A stretch of 40,633 bases of DNA from the UHGV virus genome UHGV-0140992. One strand, 5' to 3'. Shown here in pieces: positions 1 through 16,836 of the stretch (position 1 is its first letter; each line of letters starts with the position of its first letter). The notes under the pieces were generated by a model that did no database searches, was not told the origin of the DNA, and saw only the letters and a list, made by a program, of their open reading frames with translations. The position numbers were made by a program, and so were the translations under genes. This DNA is from a virus.

Positions 1-1427
1 AAGCACCAGTCAACAATGCTGTGCTTCTGAAAAAGATGATTGGCAAGGATAGTAAGGTCGTTCCCCTGATAGCCGTCAACATCGAATGAGTAGGCCAGAT
101 CACGGACAACACTGCCTTTCTCCTGGACGAACAGAGCAATATTCGCCACGGCAATTGGTGGGACATTGCTCGAGCCATTTGATCCCTGAGAGCTGAATGC
201 AAATGATGATGGGGTAAGCACTTTGTTCTGGTCGCCAGTGATGACGTACTCACCTCCGGAAGTCAGCGCCACCAGCGAACCAACATCAATCAGGTGACGG
301 ATCTCATTAACCTGACGCCCGGCATAGGTGTAGATAATTCTGTCGTCATCCTGCGTAGGATTGCTTTTGCCAAAATCCTTATAATCCCCAGTACGGCTGG
401 CCCAGATAGTCTGAGGGAACGCAGTCGATGCGGCGAAGTAAAGACGCTGTTGATAATAAACAACAGTGCCAGGATAACCATTAACACTGTTCCAGGCATA
501 TTTAGCCCATTTATAGCTGGCATTATCCTCGCCAACGACCTGCGAAGGGATATAGGAAATCACCTCGGCAGTTGCAGTAGTGCCATTTGCAGCAGTGATA
601 CGGGCAATGCCAAAACCACTGTGCAGATACTCCCACTCAATGCCAGTATCATCATCACCGGATCCGCCCCAGCCATCCCATGATGTGCCTTCTGTATGCG
701 AAGGGCGCAAAGTACCTGTTTTGCCTGCTGTAACGGCGCGATAGTAGTTACTGTCTGCACGGCGAATATCGCCAATCGACGTACTCTTACTGGTTTCCCA
801 TACAGGTACTGAATCCACTGCAGGCTGTTCCAGATAGAACAATTTGCCTACCTGCTCCGCGCCAAAAATAGAGACGCTTGCCGTTAACGTAATTGTCCCG
901 GTGCTGGCGCTGGCATAAACCGTCACTGACTCATCAATATTGATATCTTCAAATGGCCCGTTCTTCGTTACCACATCAACCAGTTGCCAGTTGTCATGCG
1001 CATAGCGACGCAACTCTTTCGGCGGGTATGCCGGATGAACAAGCGTAAGCACGTCTGCGCTTTGCGTGAATTTAATTCGGAACAGATCGGCTTCAGTATA
1101 TGGCGTGGCAATTTCATAAATAACATTGCTGCTGTTCAGCACCAACGCACCATCTTTGATAACGCGCATGTACTGGTGTCCGAACTCCAGAGCATAGGTC
1201 TGAACCGTCGAGAACTGGAACGGGATCAGGCGGCATTTCCGATTTGGGTATTTGGCGGCACCGACAAAACGCGTACCAGGTCGATTCTCAACGCCGCCAT
1301 ACTGCCGCACGATAAAGTTATCGCACTTGCGCAATGCCACCTGGTACTTCGCCATGTCGATACGTCCGTACAACGACGGTCCAATCTCACCACCAGCAAA
1401 GCTGGGCTGGATCCAACTGATAGCCAT
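1..1427 (-). CDS. tail tubular protein B-like (T7 gp12-like), N-terminal ~475 codons; gene runs off the window start and resumes in frame at the window end
   Basis: ATG at 1427-1425 overlaps the upstream stop (ATGA); manual minus-strand translation 1427->3 is stop-free (MAISWIQPSFAGGEIGPSLYGRIDMAKYQ...); N-terminus resembles T7 gp12; follows a gp11-like gene. Confidence 0.55.
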   Translation of the reverse strand, partial: MAISWIQPSFAGGEIGPSLYGRIDMAKYQVALRKCDNFIVRQYGGVENRPGTRFVGAAKYPNRKCRLIPFQFSTVQTYALEFGHQYMRVIKDGALVLNSSNVIYEIATPYTEADLFRIKFTQSADVLTLVHPAYPPKELRRYAHDNWQLVDVVTKNGPFEDINIDESVTVYASASTGTITLTASVSIFGAEQVGKLFYLEQPAVDSVPVWETSKSTSIGDIRRADSNYYRAVTAGKTGTLRPSHTEGTSWDGWGGSGDDDTGIEWEYLHSGFGIARITAANGTTATAEVISYIPSQVVGEDNASYKWAKYAWNSVNGYPGTVVYYQQRLYFAASTAFPQTIWASRTGDYKDFGKSNPTQDDDRIIYTYAGRQVNEIRHLIDVGSLVALTSGGEYVITGDQNKVLTPSSFAFSSQGSNGSSNVPPIAVANIALFVQEKGSVVRDLAYSFDVDGYQGNDLTILANHLFQKHSIVDWC

Positions 1428-5236: not shown

Positions 5237-6912
5237 TGTGATTGCCCACCCTGACCACTAACTGCATTCGCCATAGCTGACAAAACACTCGGATCCGAAG
5301 TTTTAGCTTCGCTTAGCGTCTTGGCACCCTGTGCCGCCGCCATCCCCATCGCCATCATTTGTTGCTGCTGTTGTTGCTGTGCCCGTTGCTGGCGAGCCTG
5401 CTCAACCTGTTCCTGCGGAACAATGACGGTTGGAGACACTCCGGACATATCAGCGAATGCATCGATCGCCTGATCAACGTTGAGTTTGTCGAGAGCTTCT
5501 GGTTTCGCTTGCGCAAGTTGACCAATGAAGTTAACCGTGGACGCCAGACTGGACAGGCCGATAGACTTCTGCGCCTGAGCCATGACGGAAATGTATTCGA
5601 CCTTCAGGGGCATGCCTTCCATCGCGTCAGGCGGTGTCGGCAGCATGTTTTTACGCACCATCATCGAGAAAGCGCGGTCAATGAGAGGATTAAGACATTC
5701 GTCGTTCAGACGCTCCAGAACCGGCCCCAACATCAGAAGTTTTTCTTCTTTCATTTCGATCACCGCTTCAACAGGCATCGAGCGGGTATTGATGTTCTGC
5801 AACATCATGAACAGATCGACAAAGTAGGCGCTGTTAATGATTTGACGGGTGTCCTGAATGTCTGCCACCAAATCTGCTGTACTGGGGTTAACCAGATAAG
5901 CAGGCCTGAAACCATCCTGACCAGTAATCTGATCGATATACGTGATGTCGCCAGGAAGAAGGGAGGCACGCTGATTCTTGAGGGAAGTCGGAGCAACCAT
6001 CGGCGGATTGGTGGCTTTATCAATCAACTGCGACTTGCGCTTCTGGAGAAGCTGCAATGCCTTAACAGGTCCAAGCGCCAGCATACCCGGGCATGATGAT
6101 CCATAAACATCTTCGCCGTTAACTTCCCAGCGCGGAGCCATAATTGGAAACTCATCGAATCCGGACTCACGCAACAACTTGTCGTTATCGCCACCAACCT
6201 CGTAATAAACCGATTTGAATGGCTTGTTCTTGCTATCCAGCTTCGATGTATCGCGGTCAATGTTCGGGTAAACCGAATGCATCACTTCAATCCACTTCTC
6301 GTAGGTGCCGCTTTCCCACATGCTTTTTACGGATTCGCTGACGTTATTTAGCCCGAACTCCTGAACAAGCTGACGAACAGTCATAGAGAACTTGCGAAAA
6401 CAGGTGTCCACACTGCCACGAGGTGAGTTAGCCAGGTAGTAACTGCCTATCGGGAATGGCATTGTGCGAATGATGTCCTCGTCATCCTCCAGCACCGCCA
6501 TTGCACCAGTGCTGTATGTGCCGAGGCTTCCGTATAACTGCGGAAGAGACTGGTAGAGATTCGACTTATTGAACATATCGTTCATGCGGTTCTGAACTGC
6601 CTCAAGCCACAACTTAACAGGGCCATAGTCCATCATTTCAGGATCTGGCGTAGCCAGGCGAAACCACGGACGGGCGGGGCTTGTTATGCCTGACATCATG
6701 CCGCTGGCAAGAGTGCGCGCCGCCATAGTCCCGGTCGAATCAATAATGCGTGTATTGCGTCGATCGTTACGGTTAACCTCAGAAGTCAGAAAGCGGGAAC
6801 CACGCGGGTTGATGTAATCACTCAACTCGCGCCAGTGCGGCTCGAACGACTGACGCTCGCTTTCAAGTTGTGCGAACTGTTTGTTCAATCGCTCTTTAGT
6901 TGTTTCCGCCAT
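5233..6912 (-). CDS. portal (head-to-tail connector) protein, 559 aa
   Basis: downstream of terminase; Gln/Ala/Met-rich C-terminal tail resembles the T7 gp8 C-terminus; GGAG RBS upstream. Confidence 0.8.
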   Translation of the reverse strand: MAETTKERLNKQFAQLESERQSFEPHWRELSDYINPRGSRFLTSEVNRNDRRNTRIIDSTGTMAARTLASGMMSGITSPARPWFRLATPDPEMMDYGPVKLWLEAVQNRMNDMFNKSNLYQSLPQLYGSLGTYSTGAMAVLEDDEDIIRTMPFPIGSYYLANSPRGSVDTCFRKFSMTVRQLVQEFGLNNVSESVKSMWESGTYEKWIEVMHSVYPNIDRDTSKLDSKNKPFKSVYYEVGGDNDKLLRESGFDEFPIMAPRWEVNGEDVYGSSCPGMLALGPVKALQLLQKRKSQLIDKATNPPMVAPTSLKNQRASLLPGDITYIDQITGQDGFRPAYLVNPSTADLVADIQDTRQIINSAYFVDLFMMLQNINTRSMPVEAVIEMKEEKLLMLGPVLERLNDECLNPLIDRAFSMMVRKNMLPTPPDAMEGMPLKVEYISVMAQAQKSIGLSSLASTVNFIGQLAQAKPEALDKLNVDQAIDAFADMSGVSPTVIVPQEQVEQARQQRAQQQQQQQMMAMGMAAAQGAKTLSEAKTSDPSVLSAMANAVSGQGGQSQ

Positions 6913-14531: not shown

Positions 14532-15308
14532 TTACTTGATAAATCCTGCCGCCTTTCCCCGCCTGTATTCCTCCATCAGCCACTGCGCCGGTGTTATTCC
14601 CCCAAGGGTGGCGGCGTTAGGCATGCACCCGAAACTTCGCCCTGGTGGATGGTAAACGTCTCTCCCTGTGTCCGGAGGTGTACTCATGGGCTCTGGCTTT
14701 GCCTGTATGCTGATCACCGGATCGGGTATCTGCTGTCCGGAAGCCACCTTTTTCGCCCAATCATCGAGCAGCCTGCGCGCGTGTTTCTCAACCTCACTCT
14801 CGCTAAGCTGGCGCTGATACATTGCACGACGGGTATCACATACGACCCAGTACATAACCGGATGCCGCCACGGGAATCTTTCGGGACCACCAGGATATAA
14901 ACTTTTTTCCTTGCTGTACCGGTGAAACTCCGCCATCACATCGTCAATGGTGACGCCAAGAACCATCTTGCTGTCTTTGCACCACTTGATGAATTGCCCT
15001 GGCGACGGCCAGAACGGAGATTCACTGGCGCGGGCGTGGCGCATACCAGCGTTAACCTGTTCCATTGTAGTGATCCCATTCTCCAGAAACGCAAGCATCC
15101 ATTGCTTACGGAATTCATTAAGTTTGTTCTGCTCCCTTATGGTCGAAACGCTTGCAGGAAATGCAGCCTGTAACTGGACAAATAGTTCATTGAAAATTCT
15201 AGCAACCTGCTCCTTTTTGCCATTGCTGTCACGCCGCTCTTCATGCACAGCAACACCATGCTCACGTAAGCGATCGTACTCATTGAGAAGTTCTGGAGTT
15301 GATTTCAT
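14532..15308 (-). CDS. replication protein P-like (helicase loader), 258 aa
   Basis: clear similarity to lambda P, e.g. FPAS...EQN...RKQWMLAFLENGITTMEQVNAGMR. Confidence 0.8.
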   Translation of the reverse strand: MKSTPELLNEYDRLREHGVAVHEERRDSNGKKEQVARIFNELFVQLQAAFPASVSTIREQNKLNEFRKQWMLAFLENGITTMEQVNAGMRHARASESPFWPSPGQFIKWCKDSKMVLGVTIDDVMAEFHRYSKEKSLYPGGPERFPWRHPVMYWVVCDTRRAMYQRQLSESEVEKHARRLLDDWAKKVASGQQIPDPVISIQAKPEPMSTPPDTGRDVYHPPGRSFGCMPNAATLGGITPAQWLMEEYRRGKAAGFIK

Positions 15309-16110
15309 CCCACACCCCTTCTATCCAGTCAGTGTTATTCCAGTCAAGCTCATCGCTTTTCCCGGCATTTTTTGATTTTCCCCTGATATGATTTACGTGC
15401 CTGGCGAATTTTTGTTCCCACTGAACCTGCGTGAACACTTTGCCCTCAGCCATCCAGTAATCCCGGAATGCAGCAAGTTCAGCAGGTGTAAATTCCGGTT
15501 CCGGCAGGGCCGTTCCCCACAGCGCAGCACGCCGCCGAAAATCTGGCGACGGTAGCCAGCCATCTGTCATCGGAAATTTCCCGATGGGTTCACTCAGGCC
15601 ATCCAGAAATTCAGGTTCTGCCACCTGCAACGGCGTACTGTTCGCTTCACTGGTCGGAGCACCCTCGCGCACGTGCGCTATGTGTGGGGTTTTATATATA
15701 TCTTCCTCTTCCTCTTCCTCTGGTAACTCCTTTTGTAACGCTGTTGGCGTTACTTTTTGCGTTACTCGTTTTCTATGCTCTGCCACTCTTCTATTCGTAA
15801 GTGCACGTTTTTTCGATGATTCTCCATTATGTCGCTCAAAGTTTGGAAGAATTAGTTTGCCGTCATGATAAGCAAGCCATCCGACGCTAATGAGGGCGTC
15901 AGCAAATCCTGTAATAAAAGCGAGTCTATCAAGTACTCCTTTTGTAACGCTGCCAGCGTTACCGTCTATTGTTTGCTGGTCAGCCCATGCCCATATACGA
16001 ACCAGCTTTCCAAGAACAGCATCTGGATCAATACCCAGAATTTCTGCTATCTGAAAAATTTCAGGTTTATCAGGAGTGATAACTTCAACCTTAATCCAGC
16101 TGCTTGCCAT
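15280..16110 (-). CDS. replication initiation protein (O-like position), about 276 aa
   Basis: directly upstream of and overlapping the P-like gene; contains iteron-like DNA repeats; start set at MASSWIKV. Confidence 0.6.
   Translation of the reverse strand: MASSWIKVEVITPDKPEIFQIAEILGIDPDAVLGKLVRIWAWADQQTIDGNAGSVTKGVLDRLAFITGFADALISVGWLAYHDGKLILPNFERHNGESSKKRALTNRRVAEHRKRVTQKVTPTALQKELPEEEEEEDIYKTPHIAHVREGAPTSEANSTPLQVAEPEFLDGLSEPIGKFPMTDGWLPSPDFRRRAALWGTALPEPEFTPAELAAFRDYWMAEGKVFTQVQWEQKFARHVNHIRGKSKNAGKSDELDWNNTDWIEGVWDEINSRTSQ
15728..15965. repeat. iteron-like repeats (candidate origin) inside the O-like gene
   Basis: CTCCTTTTGTAACGCTG at about 15728 and 15946, each followed by inverted GCGTTAC; five GTAACGC/GCGTTAC copies; the two long copies are read in different frames. 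Confidence 0.4.
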
Positions 16111-16303
16111 AGGTTTCCCCTCTTGCACTCTTTAGTGCACAAGCAAATTCATTACGATGGCGGTTGGCGCTATTCATTGCACATTCAACACATGTTCCGT
16201 TCAGAACATACCTTTCAGAGAGATGGCCGTGACGGCACCGCTTTCCTGTGAAATAGCGATTTAACCCGGCTTTTGCGGCCTCCATTCTGGTTACTATCTT
16301 CAA
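16091..16303 (-). CDS. hypothetical small Cys/His-rich protein, 70 aa (cII position)
   Basis: ORF track; between the Cro-like and O-like genes. Confidence 0.4.
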   Translation of the reverse strand: MKIVTRMEAAKAGLNRYFTGKRCRHGHLSERYVLNGTCVECAMNSANRHRNEFACALKSARGETYGKQLD

Positions 16304-16403
16304 TTTTTCCGCCCCTTTTTGTTATTGATATTGACTATTTTGCACAATTGGAAAATTTGATCAACCAGATTTGGTTTTTTATTACCCTTAAGGTGCGAAT
16401 AGA

Positions 16404-16430
16404 TATGAAAAGACCGCCGGATGGCGGTCT
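16404..16430 (-). terminator. intrinsic terminator after the Cro-like gene (tR1-like position)
   Basis: agaccgcc-ggat-ggcggtct 8-bp stem with TTTT on the minus strand. Confidence 0.5.
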
Positions 16431-16682: not shown

Positions 16683-16718
16683 AGCTATTGCCTGATATTT
16701 ATTTCAGATAATAAATAT

Positions 16719-16781
16719 TCACCCATAAGGTAACAAAAATCAAGGATAGTTACCTATGAGGTGCATTTACCTGTTGGGTAA
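16719..16781. promoter_or_regulatory. OR-like operator cluster: TCACCCATAAGGTAA (16719), TTACCTATGAGGTGC (16750), TTACCTGTTGGGTAA (16767)
   Basis: three 15-bp inverted repeats at 31- and 17-bp spacing between divergent Cro-like and CI-like genes. Confidence 0.6.
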
Positions 16782-16836
16782 TATTGCTTTAAATTGAATC
16801 ATCTACTGATTCATATATGAGGCGATTTTCCAGAAA

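Follow-up and report, generated by a model that had tools for sequence, protein, structure and literature searches.

Replication origins that lie inside the gene of their own initiator are a known kind of element. The replisome-organiser initiator G38P of phage SPP1 has its origin, oriL, in its own gene, and in iteron plasmids the inverted repeats bound by dimers of the Rep protein act as operators. For lambdoid phages, the origin has been described as iterons and an AT-rich tract in the middle of gene O; two iterons and the AT-rich region are enough for unwinding, and the O protein binds single-stranded DNA (PMC7466680). Plasmid Rep proteins also contact single-stranded DNA of the unwinding element (PMC4081077). 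Here we describe an element within the O-like initiator gene of the virus genome UHGV-0140992, whose whole length of 40,633 nucleotides (nt) is referred to as the window. The gene (15280–16110, minus strand) encodes 276 amino acids (aa) from the ATG, beginning MASSWIKV, and its product consists of an N-terminal winged-helix-like domain (~aa 1–118, the N-domain), a linker (~aa 119–178) and a C-terminal DnaT-like domain (aa 179–249). An earlier note on this DNA had proposed a probable origin at iteron-like repeats in the gene. Conservation, linkage to the N-domain and an oriLambda-like layout support that proposal, and we consider it likely that the element is a replication origin of the phage, carried within its initiator's gene in the way that gene O carries oriLambda. 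Although the kind is known, we found no precedent for the architecture, in which half-sites in a phased array are combined with a palindrome at a distance, a GA tract that abuts the array and a winged-helix domain outside any classified family: a literature search that left older subscription literature outside its scope returned no description of the present origin type, of the tract or of an EKRREEK-type peptide, and the vB_EcoP_ZX5 genome paper contains no discussion of this one.

Results

A repeat finder returned a 28-nt direct repeat in the gene, with copies at 15726–15753 (ACTCCTTTTGTAACGCTGTTGGCGTTAC) and 15935–15962 (ACTCCTTTTGTAACGCTGCCAGCGTTAC) whose initial 18 nt are identical. The 17-mer CTCCTTTTGTAACGCTG singled out by the earlier note lies at 15727–15743 and 15936–15952, each time with its inverted heptamer, and a further GCGTTAC is found at 15759–15765. 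Although both 17-mers are present as noted, the predicted functional units are half-sites of 6–7 base pairs (bp), set out as a 12-bp-phased array and a distal palindrome. Each long copy holds a 7-N5-7 palindrome, GTAACGC-N5-GCGTTAC (15735–15753 and 15944–15962; none of the sites is assigned a strand). The distal one, site A (15944–15962), which starts at gene nt 149, extends to nt 167 and encodes G50–T56, is a perfect 9+1+9 palindrome, GTAACGCTG-C-CAGCGTTAC, about 190 bp from the proximal array. That array (15723–15765) comprises four half-sites phased by exactly 12 bp in the order > > < <. In gene orientation, half-site 1 is GTAACGC at nt 346–352 (15759–15765, GCGTTAC on the window strand); half-sites 2 and 3, GTAACGC at nt 358 and GCGTTAC at nt 370, form the core, site B (15735–15753, gene nt 358–376, GTAACGC-TGTTG-GCGTTAC); and half-site 4 is a degenerate GaGTTAC at nt 382–388 (15723–15729, GTAACTC on the window strand). 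The long copies start 209 nt apart, which is no multiple of 3, so sites A and B are read in different frames, as had been claimed: site A translates as G-N-A-G-S-V-T-K-G and site B as V-T-P-T-A-L-Q-K-E. The window has 12 GTAACGC heptamers where ~3.9 are expected, and five of them lie within 15735–15962. The full 19-mer pattern occurs without mismatch at sites A and B only, and the sole further match allowing up to 3 mismatches (position 6752, 3 mismatches) is attributable to chance.

Half-site 4 is followed by a single C (15722) and then by a purine tract, AGAGGAAGAGGAAGAGGAAGA, of 21 nt on the coding (minus) strand (15701–15721, gene nt 390–410), which is the longest homopurine/homopyrimidine run of the window. 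It encodes the run EEEEEE. This had been set aside in the earlier note as a plain coding repeat, a view that we revise, since the run is the element's conserved purine tract. The tract leads into a TA-rich element without assigned strand (15690–15700, gene nt 411–421), TATATATAAAA in gene sense, which is a candidate first-melting site: no duplex in the whole 40.6 kb is less stable than the 15-step window that begins at 15690, and the 25-step stability window ranks in the top 0.64%.

This arrangement parallels oriLambda of lambda and the Stx phages. The lambda record shows four iterons at O gene nt 349–433, followed by ACAAAAGAAAAAAGAAAAGATTATT with an 18-nt all-purine run at nt 453–470; the corresponding positions here are nt 346–388 for the array and 390–410 for the tract. 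Both elements occupy the middle part of an initiator gene, where N-domain and linker meet, and in both the palindromic sites, known or putative, of the initiator are followed within ~20 bp by an all-purine coding-strand run and an A/T stretch, which in the window is short. A P-type helicase loader gene downstream and a similar C-terminal protein tail are also common to the two. There are also differences. The N-domain has no sequence homology to that of lambda O, BLASTP aligning the last ~55 residues only, and Pfam Phage_rep_O gives no match to the window protein even at E values up to 10. Where lambda has at least four tandem 18-bp iterons, the present element has half-sites of 6–7 bp at 12-bp spacing in the order > > < <, and an extra distal palindrome ~190 bp upstream; its tract is GA-rich rather than A-rich, and the C-domain of its initiator is DnaT-like. 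The element is one that probably works like oriLambda, yet its initiator is outside the O family.

The earlier note had named lack of conservation of the repeats in relatives with the same initiator as an observation that would speak against an origin. A protein search with the N-terminal 140 aa returned homologues to ~40% identity, all beginning MA(S/G)xWIK, and scanning one genome per species yielded 80 loci with the N-domain from Enterobacterales, Pseudomonas, Burkholderiales, Xanthomonadales, Planctomycetota and Verrucomicrobiota/Akkermansia. The repeats are conserved: at least three exact half-sites occur within gene nt 1–420 in 71 of the 80 loci, and of the six loci with no exact half-site, at least five have variant half-sites at the same positions. 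The gene N-termini (nt 1–420), 33.6 kb in total, contain 355 exact GTAACG/CGTTAC half-sites as against 53 in 223 kb of flanks, or 10.6 versus 0.24 per kb. GTAACGC-N5-GCGTTAC is found at gene nt ~149 in nearly all 80 loci, with a second copy at nt 338–394, whereas the spacers are free. Many loci also have a direct half-site 11–12 bp upstream of the core, equivalent to half-site 1, and the equivalent of half-site 4 in relatives is CGTTACC(T), directly abutting the tract.

Selection at the DNA level, as the earlier note had argued, is borne out by codon usage at the sites. In a codon alignment of 78 distinct genes, third positions in the arms of site A are conserved at 0.94, 0.95, 0.94 and 0.90, the highest values among degenerate positions, as against 0.3–0.6 at other invariant four-fold residues. 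The start of the site-B palindrome falls in frame 0 in 19 loci and in frame 1 in 40; in the Rac-type prophage gene, site B encodes GNAASVT, in the frame of site A, where the window has VTPTALQ. Over the initiator gene, the window has 99.8% identity to the E. coli podophages vB_EcoP_ZX5 and HEMP4, and 97% to TL-2011b. When TL-2011b, Enterobacter phage BUCT554, a Klebsiella phage and the Rac-type gene are aligned with the window, both palindromes, the AAAA that follows and the GAG/GAA run are invariant, while there is variation at nearby synonymous sites and no relationship between the C-terminal halves. On the chromosome of the planctomycete Stieleria magnilauensis (L091, L092), two copies of the initiator/origin module lie ~44 kb apart and have identical site sequences.

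Variant half-sites change together within a locus. In locus L123, GTTGCGC/GCGCAAC takes the place of the usual sequence at nt 149 and 338 and in two more copies, and two Akkermansia loci have the same type (the GTTGCG class comprises L123, L155 and L158); the half-site is GTCACG in L160 and GTGACG in L161. Phages epsilon15 and phiPSA1, whose clade was fetched separately from the 80-locus sample and whose N-domains are 34–35% identical to that of the window, have GTCCGC/GCGGAC half-sites in two clusters, one at gene nt 55–107 and the other a > > < < array abutting the tract. These two phages (of Salmonella and Pseudomonas, respectively) differ in neighbouring genes and C-domains but have their half-site class in common. 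Many further loci of the GCGGAC and CGTGAC classes emerged from a scan for the tract only. Since the sites switch together per locus and track the clade of the N-domain rather than the host, they show the pattern typical of sites that co-evolve with their initiator. A comparison of half-site classes with the N-domain alignment, aimed at specificity-determining residues, included too few independent variants for a conclusion. The junction CGTTACC(N)AGAGAAGAGAAG is found in at least 120 viral contigs, and the N-domain is encoded immediately upstream (67–187 bits) in all 112 of the 112 contigs with enough upstream sequence. Among 107 distinct sequences, 93 have the distal palindrome 213–283 nt upstream, and > > < < and > < < are the most frequent arrangements of the proximal sites. 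This linkage of N-domain and sites holds across differing C-terminal domains and neighbouring genes.

The tract has the form (GAGGAA)3 in the window and (GAGAA)n in most relatives; in five enterobacterial genes it is invariant as DNA except for a 6-nt deletion in TL-2011b, and outside the enteric clade and in other phyla it is (GAGAA)n of 8–39 nt, translated EKRRE. An all-purine coding-strand run lies directly 3' of the last half-site in every member of the N-domain family examined. CGTTACC or GTTACCT stands immediately 5' of the tract in 45 of the 80 loci, and in most of the remaining 35 the tract begins earlier, with interruptions; TA follows directly on its 3' side in 57 of the 80. Arginine codons within the tracts are AGA 101 times, AGG twice and CGN never; elsewhere in the same genes AGA accounts for 67 of 1197, hosts of ~60% GC included. 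Frame independence of the tract, considered as an argument for a DNA function, was dropped: a repeat unit of 5 nt has no common factor with the codon length of 3, and (GAGAA)n is therefore translated into one and the same peptide whichever frame is read, which makes frame use uninformative. The DNA-level case for the tract rests on codon choice, on the enteric variant that encodes poly-E and is still all-purine, on the fixed abutment and on a non-coding instance in L343. In the latter (760–900, minus strand), the tract is intergenic: ~55 nt of purines, beginning AGAGAAGAGAAGAGAAGA, come after a terminase-like open reading frame (ORF) and are flanked by the repeats GCGTTTGCT and TTTGCTAC, and no ORF of at least 40 aa covers them.

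Pfam DnaT (PF17948), the DNA-binding domain of the E. coli primosomal protein DnaT, matches aa 179–249 of the initiator (1.6e-18), whereas the N-terminal two thirds are unrelated to DnaT. The NCBIfam DnaT equivalog model NF002770 reaches 92.4 bits, below its cutoff of 201, with the alignment restricted to the C-terminal domain; judged by these matches, database names such as 'primosomal protein I' overstate the relation to DnaT. PHROG 2509, 'replication initiation protein', matches the whole protein (9e-130). For the N-domain, searches of Pfam and NCBIfam found no family, and a sequence profile search of the PDB gave chance matches only. The AlphaFold model has a mean predicted local distance difference test (pLDDT) score of 73, reaching ~90 across most of residues 11–90, and its N-domain core is a helix-helix-hairpin of the winged-helix type. 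In this model, the amino acids that site A encodes fall in a stretch of lower confidence (residues 41–60) between helices 29–46 and 57–64. With this moderate model (pLDDT 73) as the Foldseek query, the nearest viral structures outside the family are 'replisome organizer', DnaD-like and DUF1376 proteins, among them a 'Replisome organizer' at E 1.7e-5 and a protein of Streptococcus phage Abc2 at 4e-3. At the sequence level, PF09681 (Phage_rep_org_N) does not match the window protein, and one of 29 family members reaches E 0.11. A gene named 'ydaU' in a Rac record (E. coli 442/2) encodes the present N-domain and carries both palindromes. We do not equate the element with the classical oriJ of Rac, because K-12 YdaU is a DUF1376-type protein and a different gene.

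The C-terminal half appears to be a separate module. A C-rich/GC block without assigned strand (15664–15689, CCCCACACATAGCGCACGTGCGCGAG in gene sense) travels with the DnaT-like C-terminal module, and similar blocks are seen in epsilon15 and Pectobacterium. Actinobacillus phage vB_Apl-pPE4 (L289, 1201–1545) matches window 15381–15699 at 84%, a region covering the DnaT-like C-terminal half, and this homology begins exactly at the TA element, at ATATATAAACCCCACACATA. The block AAACCCCACACATA, common to both, is translated in a different frame in pPE4, and the pPE4 initiator has an unrelated N-terminal part and repeats of its own (CCTAAGGATAAG twice, CAGATAA 2.5 times). Because the homology starts at the TA element, the putative origin can be placed at a recombination joint of two modules, which from the alignments are a recognition module (N-domain, sites and tract) and a putative loading module (TA/C-rich block, DnaT-like domain and P-type tail). 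The tail (15283–15330), LDWNNTDWIEGV, resembles that of lambda O, LDLTNTDWIYGV (pairwise E 0.003, motif LDxxNTDWIxGV), and plausibly provides the contact with the P-type helicase loader. In family members with a non-DnaT C-domain (L002, L003, L085, L103, L147, L156 and L162), C5-7 N3-4 C5-7 ... G5-7 motifs sit 30–40 nt after the tract, for example CCCCCCTAACCCCCCAAGGGGG. These may represent a second type of downstream origin block tied to the class of C-domain.

Immediately downstream of the initiator gene, and overlapping its end, is the gene of a lambda P-like helicase loader (14532–15308, minus strand; Pfam Phage_lambda_P PF06992, 5.1e-56; PHROG 109, 'P-like helicase loader'). Upstream are a gene of Cro type and, in divergent orientation, one for a cI-like repressor. 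Between the latter two, at 16683–16836, the inverted repeats TTACCTGTTGGGTAA and AGGTAAC-N14-GTTACCT are candidate operators, whose arms resemble the origin half-site while their geometry is unlike it. A 70-aa Cys/His-rich ORF (16091–16303, PHROG 1081) overlaps the start of the initiator gene. Between it and the Cro-like gene, a strong terminator-like hairpin on the minus strand (16411–16430, AGACCGCCATCCGGCGGTCT, then TTTCAT) resembles a tR1-type control point upstream of replication genes. Cumulative GC skew, tried as origin evidence, has its minimum at 16–18 kb; it was rejected as uninformative because the minimum coincides with the divergent-transcription switch at ~16.7 kb.

The scan of viral contigs for the tract only gave 95 new usable loci, of which 60 have the present N-domain upstream. 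About 30 of the other 35 are in ORFs whose N-terminus shows a comparable W-[FI]-K motif, and each of these has a repeat array of its own that ends 0–3 nt before the tract (GATAACC x8, TCCCGA x5, AATGCA x5, CAACGCC x5 and others). Pfam searches with 10 of these proteins returned Lin1244_N twice, Phage_rep_org_N once, a weak DUF1376 match once and no match for six. Examples of a family-specific array with (GAGAA)n and TA are L291, L305, L325, L330, L346, L361, L370 and L390 (range L290–L391). These loci suggest that array, tract and TA form a general origin layout for phage initiators of the replisome-organiser type. In Lactococcus phage Tuc2009, the record of the Rep gene (L392, 7430–7560) carries the annotation 'contains origin of replication', and in the middle of the gene CAACCA repeats pass directly into a tract with a period of 5 nt, AGGAT AGGAT AGGAG AGGTT AGGTT AGGTA AGGAT. 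This hints that a short-period tract beside initiator sites is common to the annotated Tuc2009 origin and the present element.

Discussion

On these data, a course of events at the element can be proposed. The winged-helix-like N-domain of the O-like protein would bind the GTAACG half-sites, with four protomers on the proximal array (15723–15765) and a dimer on the distal palindrome (15944–15962), the two perhaps being joined by looping or wrapping. The duplex would then open at the 21-nt tract and the unstable TATATATAAAA element that adjoin the last half-site, while transcription from the rightward promoter crosses the gene. Finally, the DnaT-like domain, as a putative single-strand-binding domain, and the lambda O-like tail would bring the opened DNA to host DnaB on its P-like loader, so that helicase loading and origin firing could follow. 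Several observations weigh against an origin of this design. The AT-rich part amounts to 11 bp only in a region of ~42% GC overall, which falls short of a classical unwinding element. Instead of standing in tandem, the site clusters are ~190 bp apart, and the distance between sites A and B ranges from 189 to 231 bp in relatives without strict helical phasing. Site A, moreover, may have a regulatory role.

Such a role, extended to all the sites, leads to the view that the initiator binds them for autoregulation only, as a roadblock or operator in its own gene, with the origin elsewhere. It would be in keeping with the Rep-dimer operators at inverted repeats of iteron plasmids, with site A being an isolated perfect palindrome within the coding region, and with the first cluster of the epsilon15 clade near the gene's 5' end. 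We regard it as unlikely, given that it leaves unexplained the invariant abutment of last half-site, tract and TA, the agreement in layout with oriLambda and the position of the least stable DNA, and that the window holds no other cluster of the GTAACGC motif. That the sites belong to some other DNA-binding protein, either the repressor/Cro or host DnaA/IHF, seems highly improbable, even though the candidate operators at 16683–16836 have GGTAAC/GTTACC-like arms. Their geometry, TTACC-N5-GGTAA, differs, and what the half-site class tracks is the clade of the N-domain, not the host or the neighbouring genes, epsilon15 and phiPSA1 being both GTCCGC. GTAACG is found unchanged from E. coli to Planctomycetota. 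The window-wide count of DnaA boxes is that expected by chance, and none lies within 15330–16300 and hence within the element.

The palindromes might instead act as nucleic-acid hairpins, in mRNA stability, translation or antisense termination; indeed, a terminator scan flags both of them on the plus (antisense) strand. We give this almost no weight. It is the sequence of the arms that is conserved and not their pairing, about half of the loci having uncompensated mismatches (GTAACGC...GCGTTAG, ...CCGTTAC), and half-sites in direct repeat (> >) are unable to pair. Nor would hairpins need a sequence common to sites A and B, or its co-variation. A T-run tail (TTTTTG) is present at site B (15735–15753) only and absent from site A, an Rfam search over 15200–16400 found no match, and an antisense terminator in particular is rejected because relatives lack the T-run and the half-sites occur also as direct repeats. 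Alternatively, the whole arrangement could be a by-product of coding, the palindromes reflecting a repeated peptide motif and the tract a slippage microsatellite for a charged ER/K or poly-E linker. In favour of such an account, the tract is length-polymorphic (8–39 nt, with the 6-nt deletion in TL-2011b), and (GAGAA)n yields (EKRRE)n in all three frames, so that its frame independence carries no information. The account is nevertheless very improbable in view of palindromes that are read in different frames and constrained at synonymous positions, of AGA as the codon for 101 of 103 tract arginines, also in hosts of 60% GC, when it accounts for 67 of 1197 elsewhere, and of an enteric tract that encodes another peptide and is still all-purine. 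Likewise, the tract always abuts the last half-site, and L343 provides an instance outside coding sequence.

An origin within the initiator's own gene therefore remains the reading we prefer, and it can be set beside systems other than lambda. Initiators of the replisome-organiser type, such as Tuc2009 Rep, resemble it in that 'replisome organizer' and Phage_rep_org_N proteins are fold neighbours of the moderate-quality N-domain model, and in an origin that is annotated in the Rep gene itself, with mid-gene repeats and then a tract of 5-nt period. They differ in their repeats, in a Tuc2009 tract that is not all-purine, and in Gram-positive hosts and a DnaD-like partner. Plasmid iteron origins (RK2 TrfA, R6K pi, pPS10 RepA) likewise combine a winged-helix initiator with repeated sites beside an unwinding element; the present element, by contrast, has no 17–22-bp tandem direct iterons and no DnaA boxes, is coding and has half-sites of mixed orientation. 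In bacterial oriC, a DnaA box is accompanied by the DnaA-trio, a short-period repeat that, as Richardson et al. reportedly found in 2016, guides the initiator onto single-stranded DNA. The likeness here, a duplex-bound initiator site that abuts a short-period repeat, is one of analogy only, as the period is 5 or 6 nt instead of 3 and the present initiator is not an AAA+ protein.

The recurrence of the tract raises the possibility, to our minds a doubtful one, that it is a previously unrecognised and widely conserved origin-opening element of many initiator families of the replisome-organiser type. It could provide a single-stranded binding track of short period, with binding nucleated at the neighbouring duplex site, in analogy to the DnaA-trio but with a unit of 5 nt. 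It could also act like a polypurine tract, as an R-loop or primer site formed from the transcript through the gene. If true, the second option would give a concrete mechanism for the 'transcriptional activation' of lambdoid origins, and it would fit the DnaT-like domain.

Conclusions

The element locates the probable origin for a group of temperate phages and prophages that includes Uetakevirus (epsilon15, TL-2011b), the CP2-like phages of Xanthomonas, Pseudomonas phiPSA1 and many prophages from Enterobacterales to Akkermansia and Planctomycetota, and whose initiator is currently annotated merely as 'primosomal protein I' or 'hypothetical protein'. A predicted DNA-binding domain without a Pfam family is thereby defined together with its putative recognition half-site, and the natural variants in specificity make half-site swap experiments straightforward. 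The compact signature of repeat array, (GAGAA)n and TA is searchable, and in the viral-contig sample it marks the initiator genes of several further families. It could improve the prediction of origins in phage genomes, and it points to an unstudied, conserved step in origin opening.

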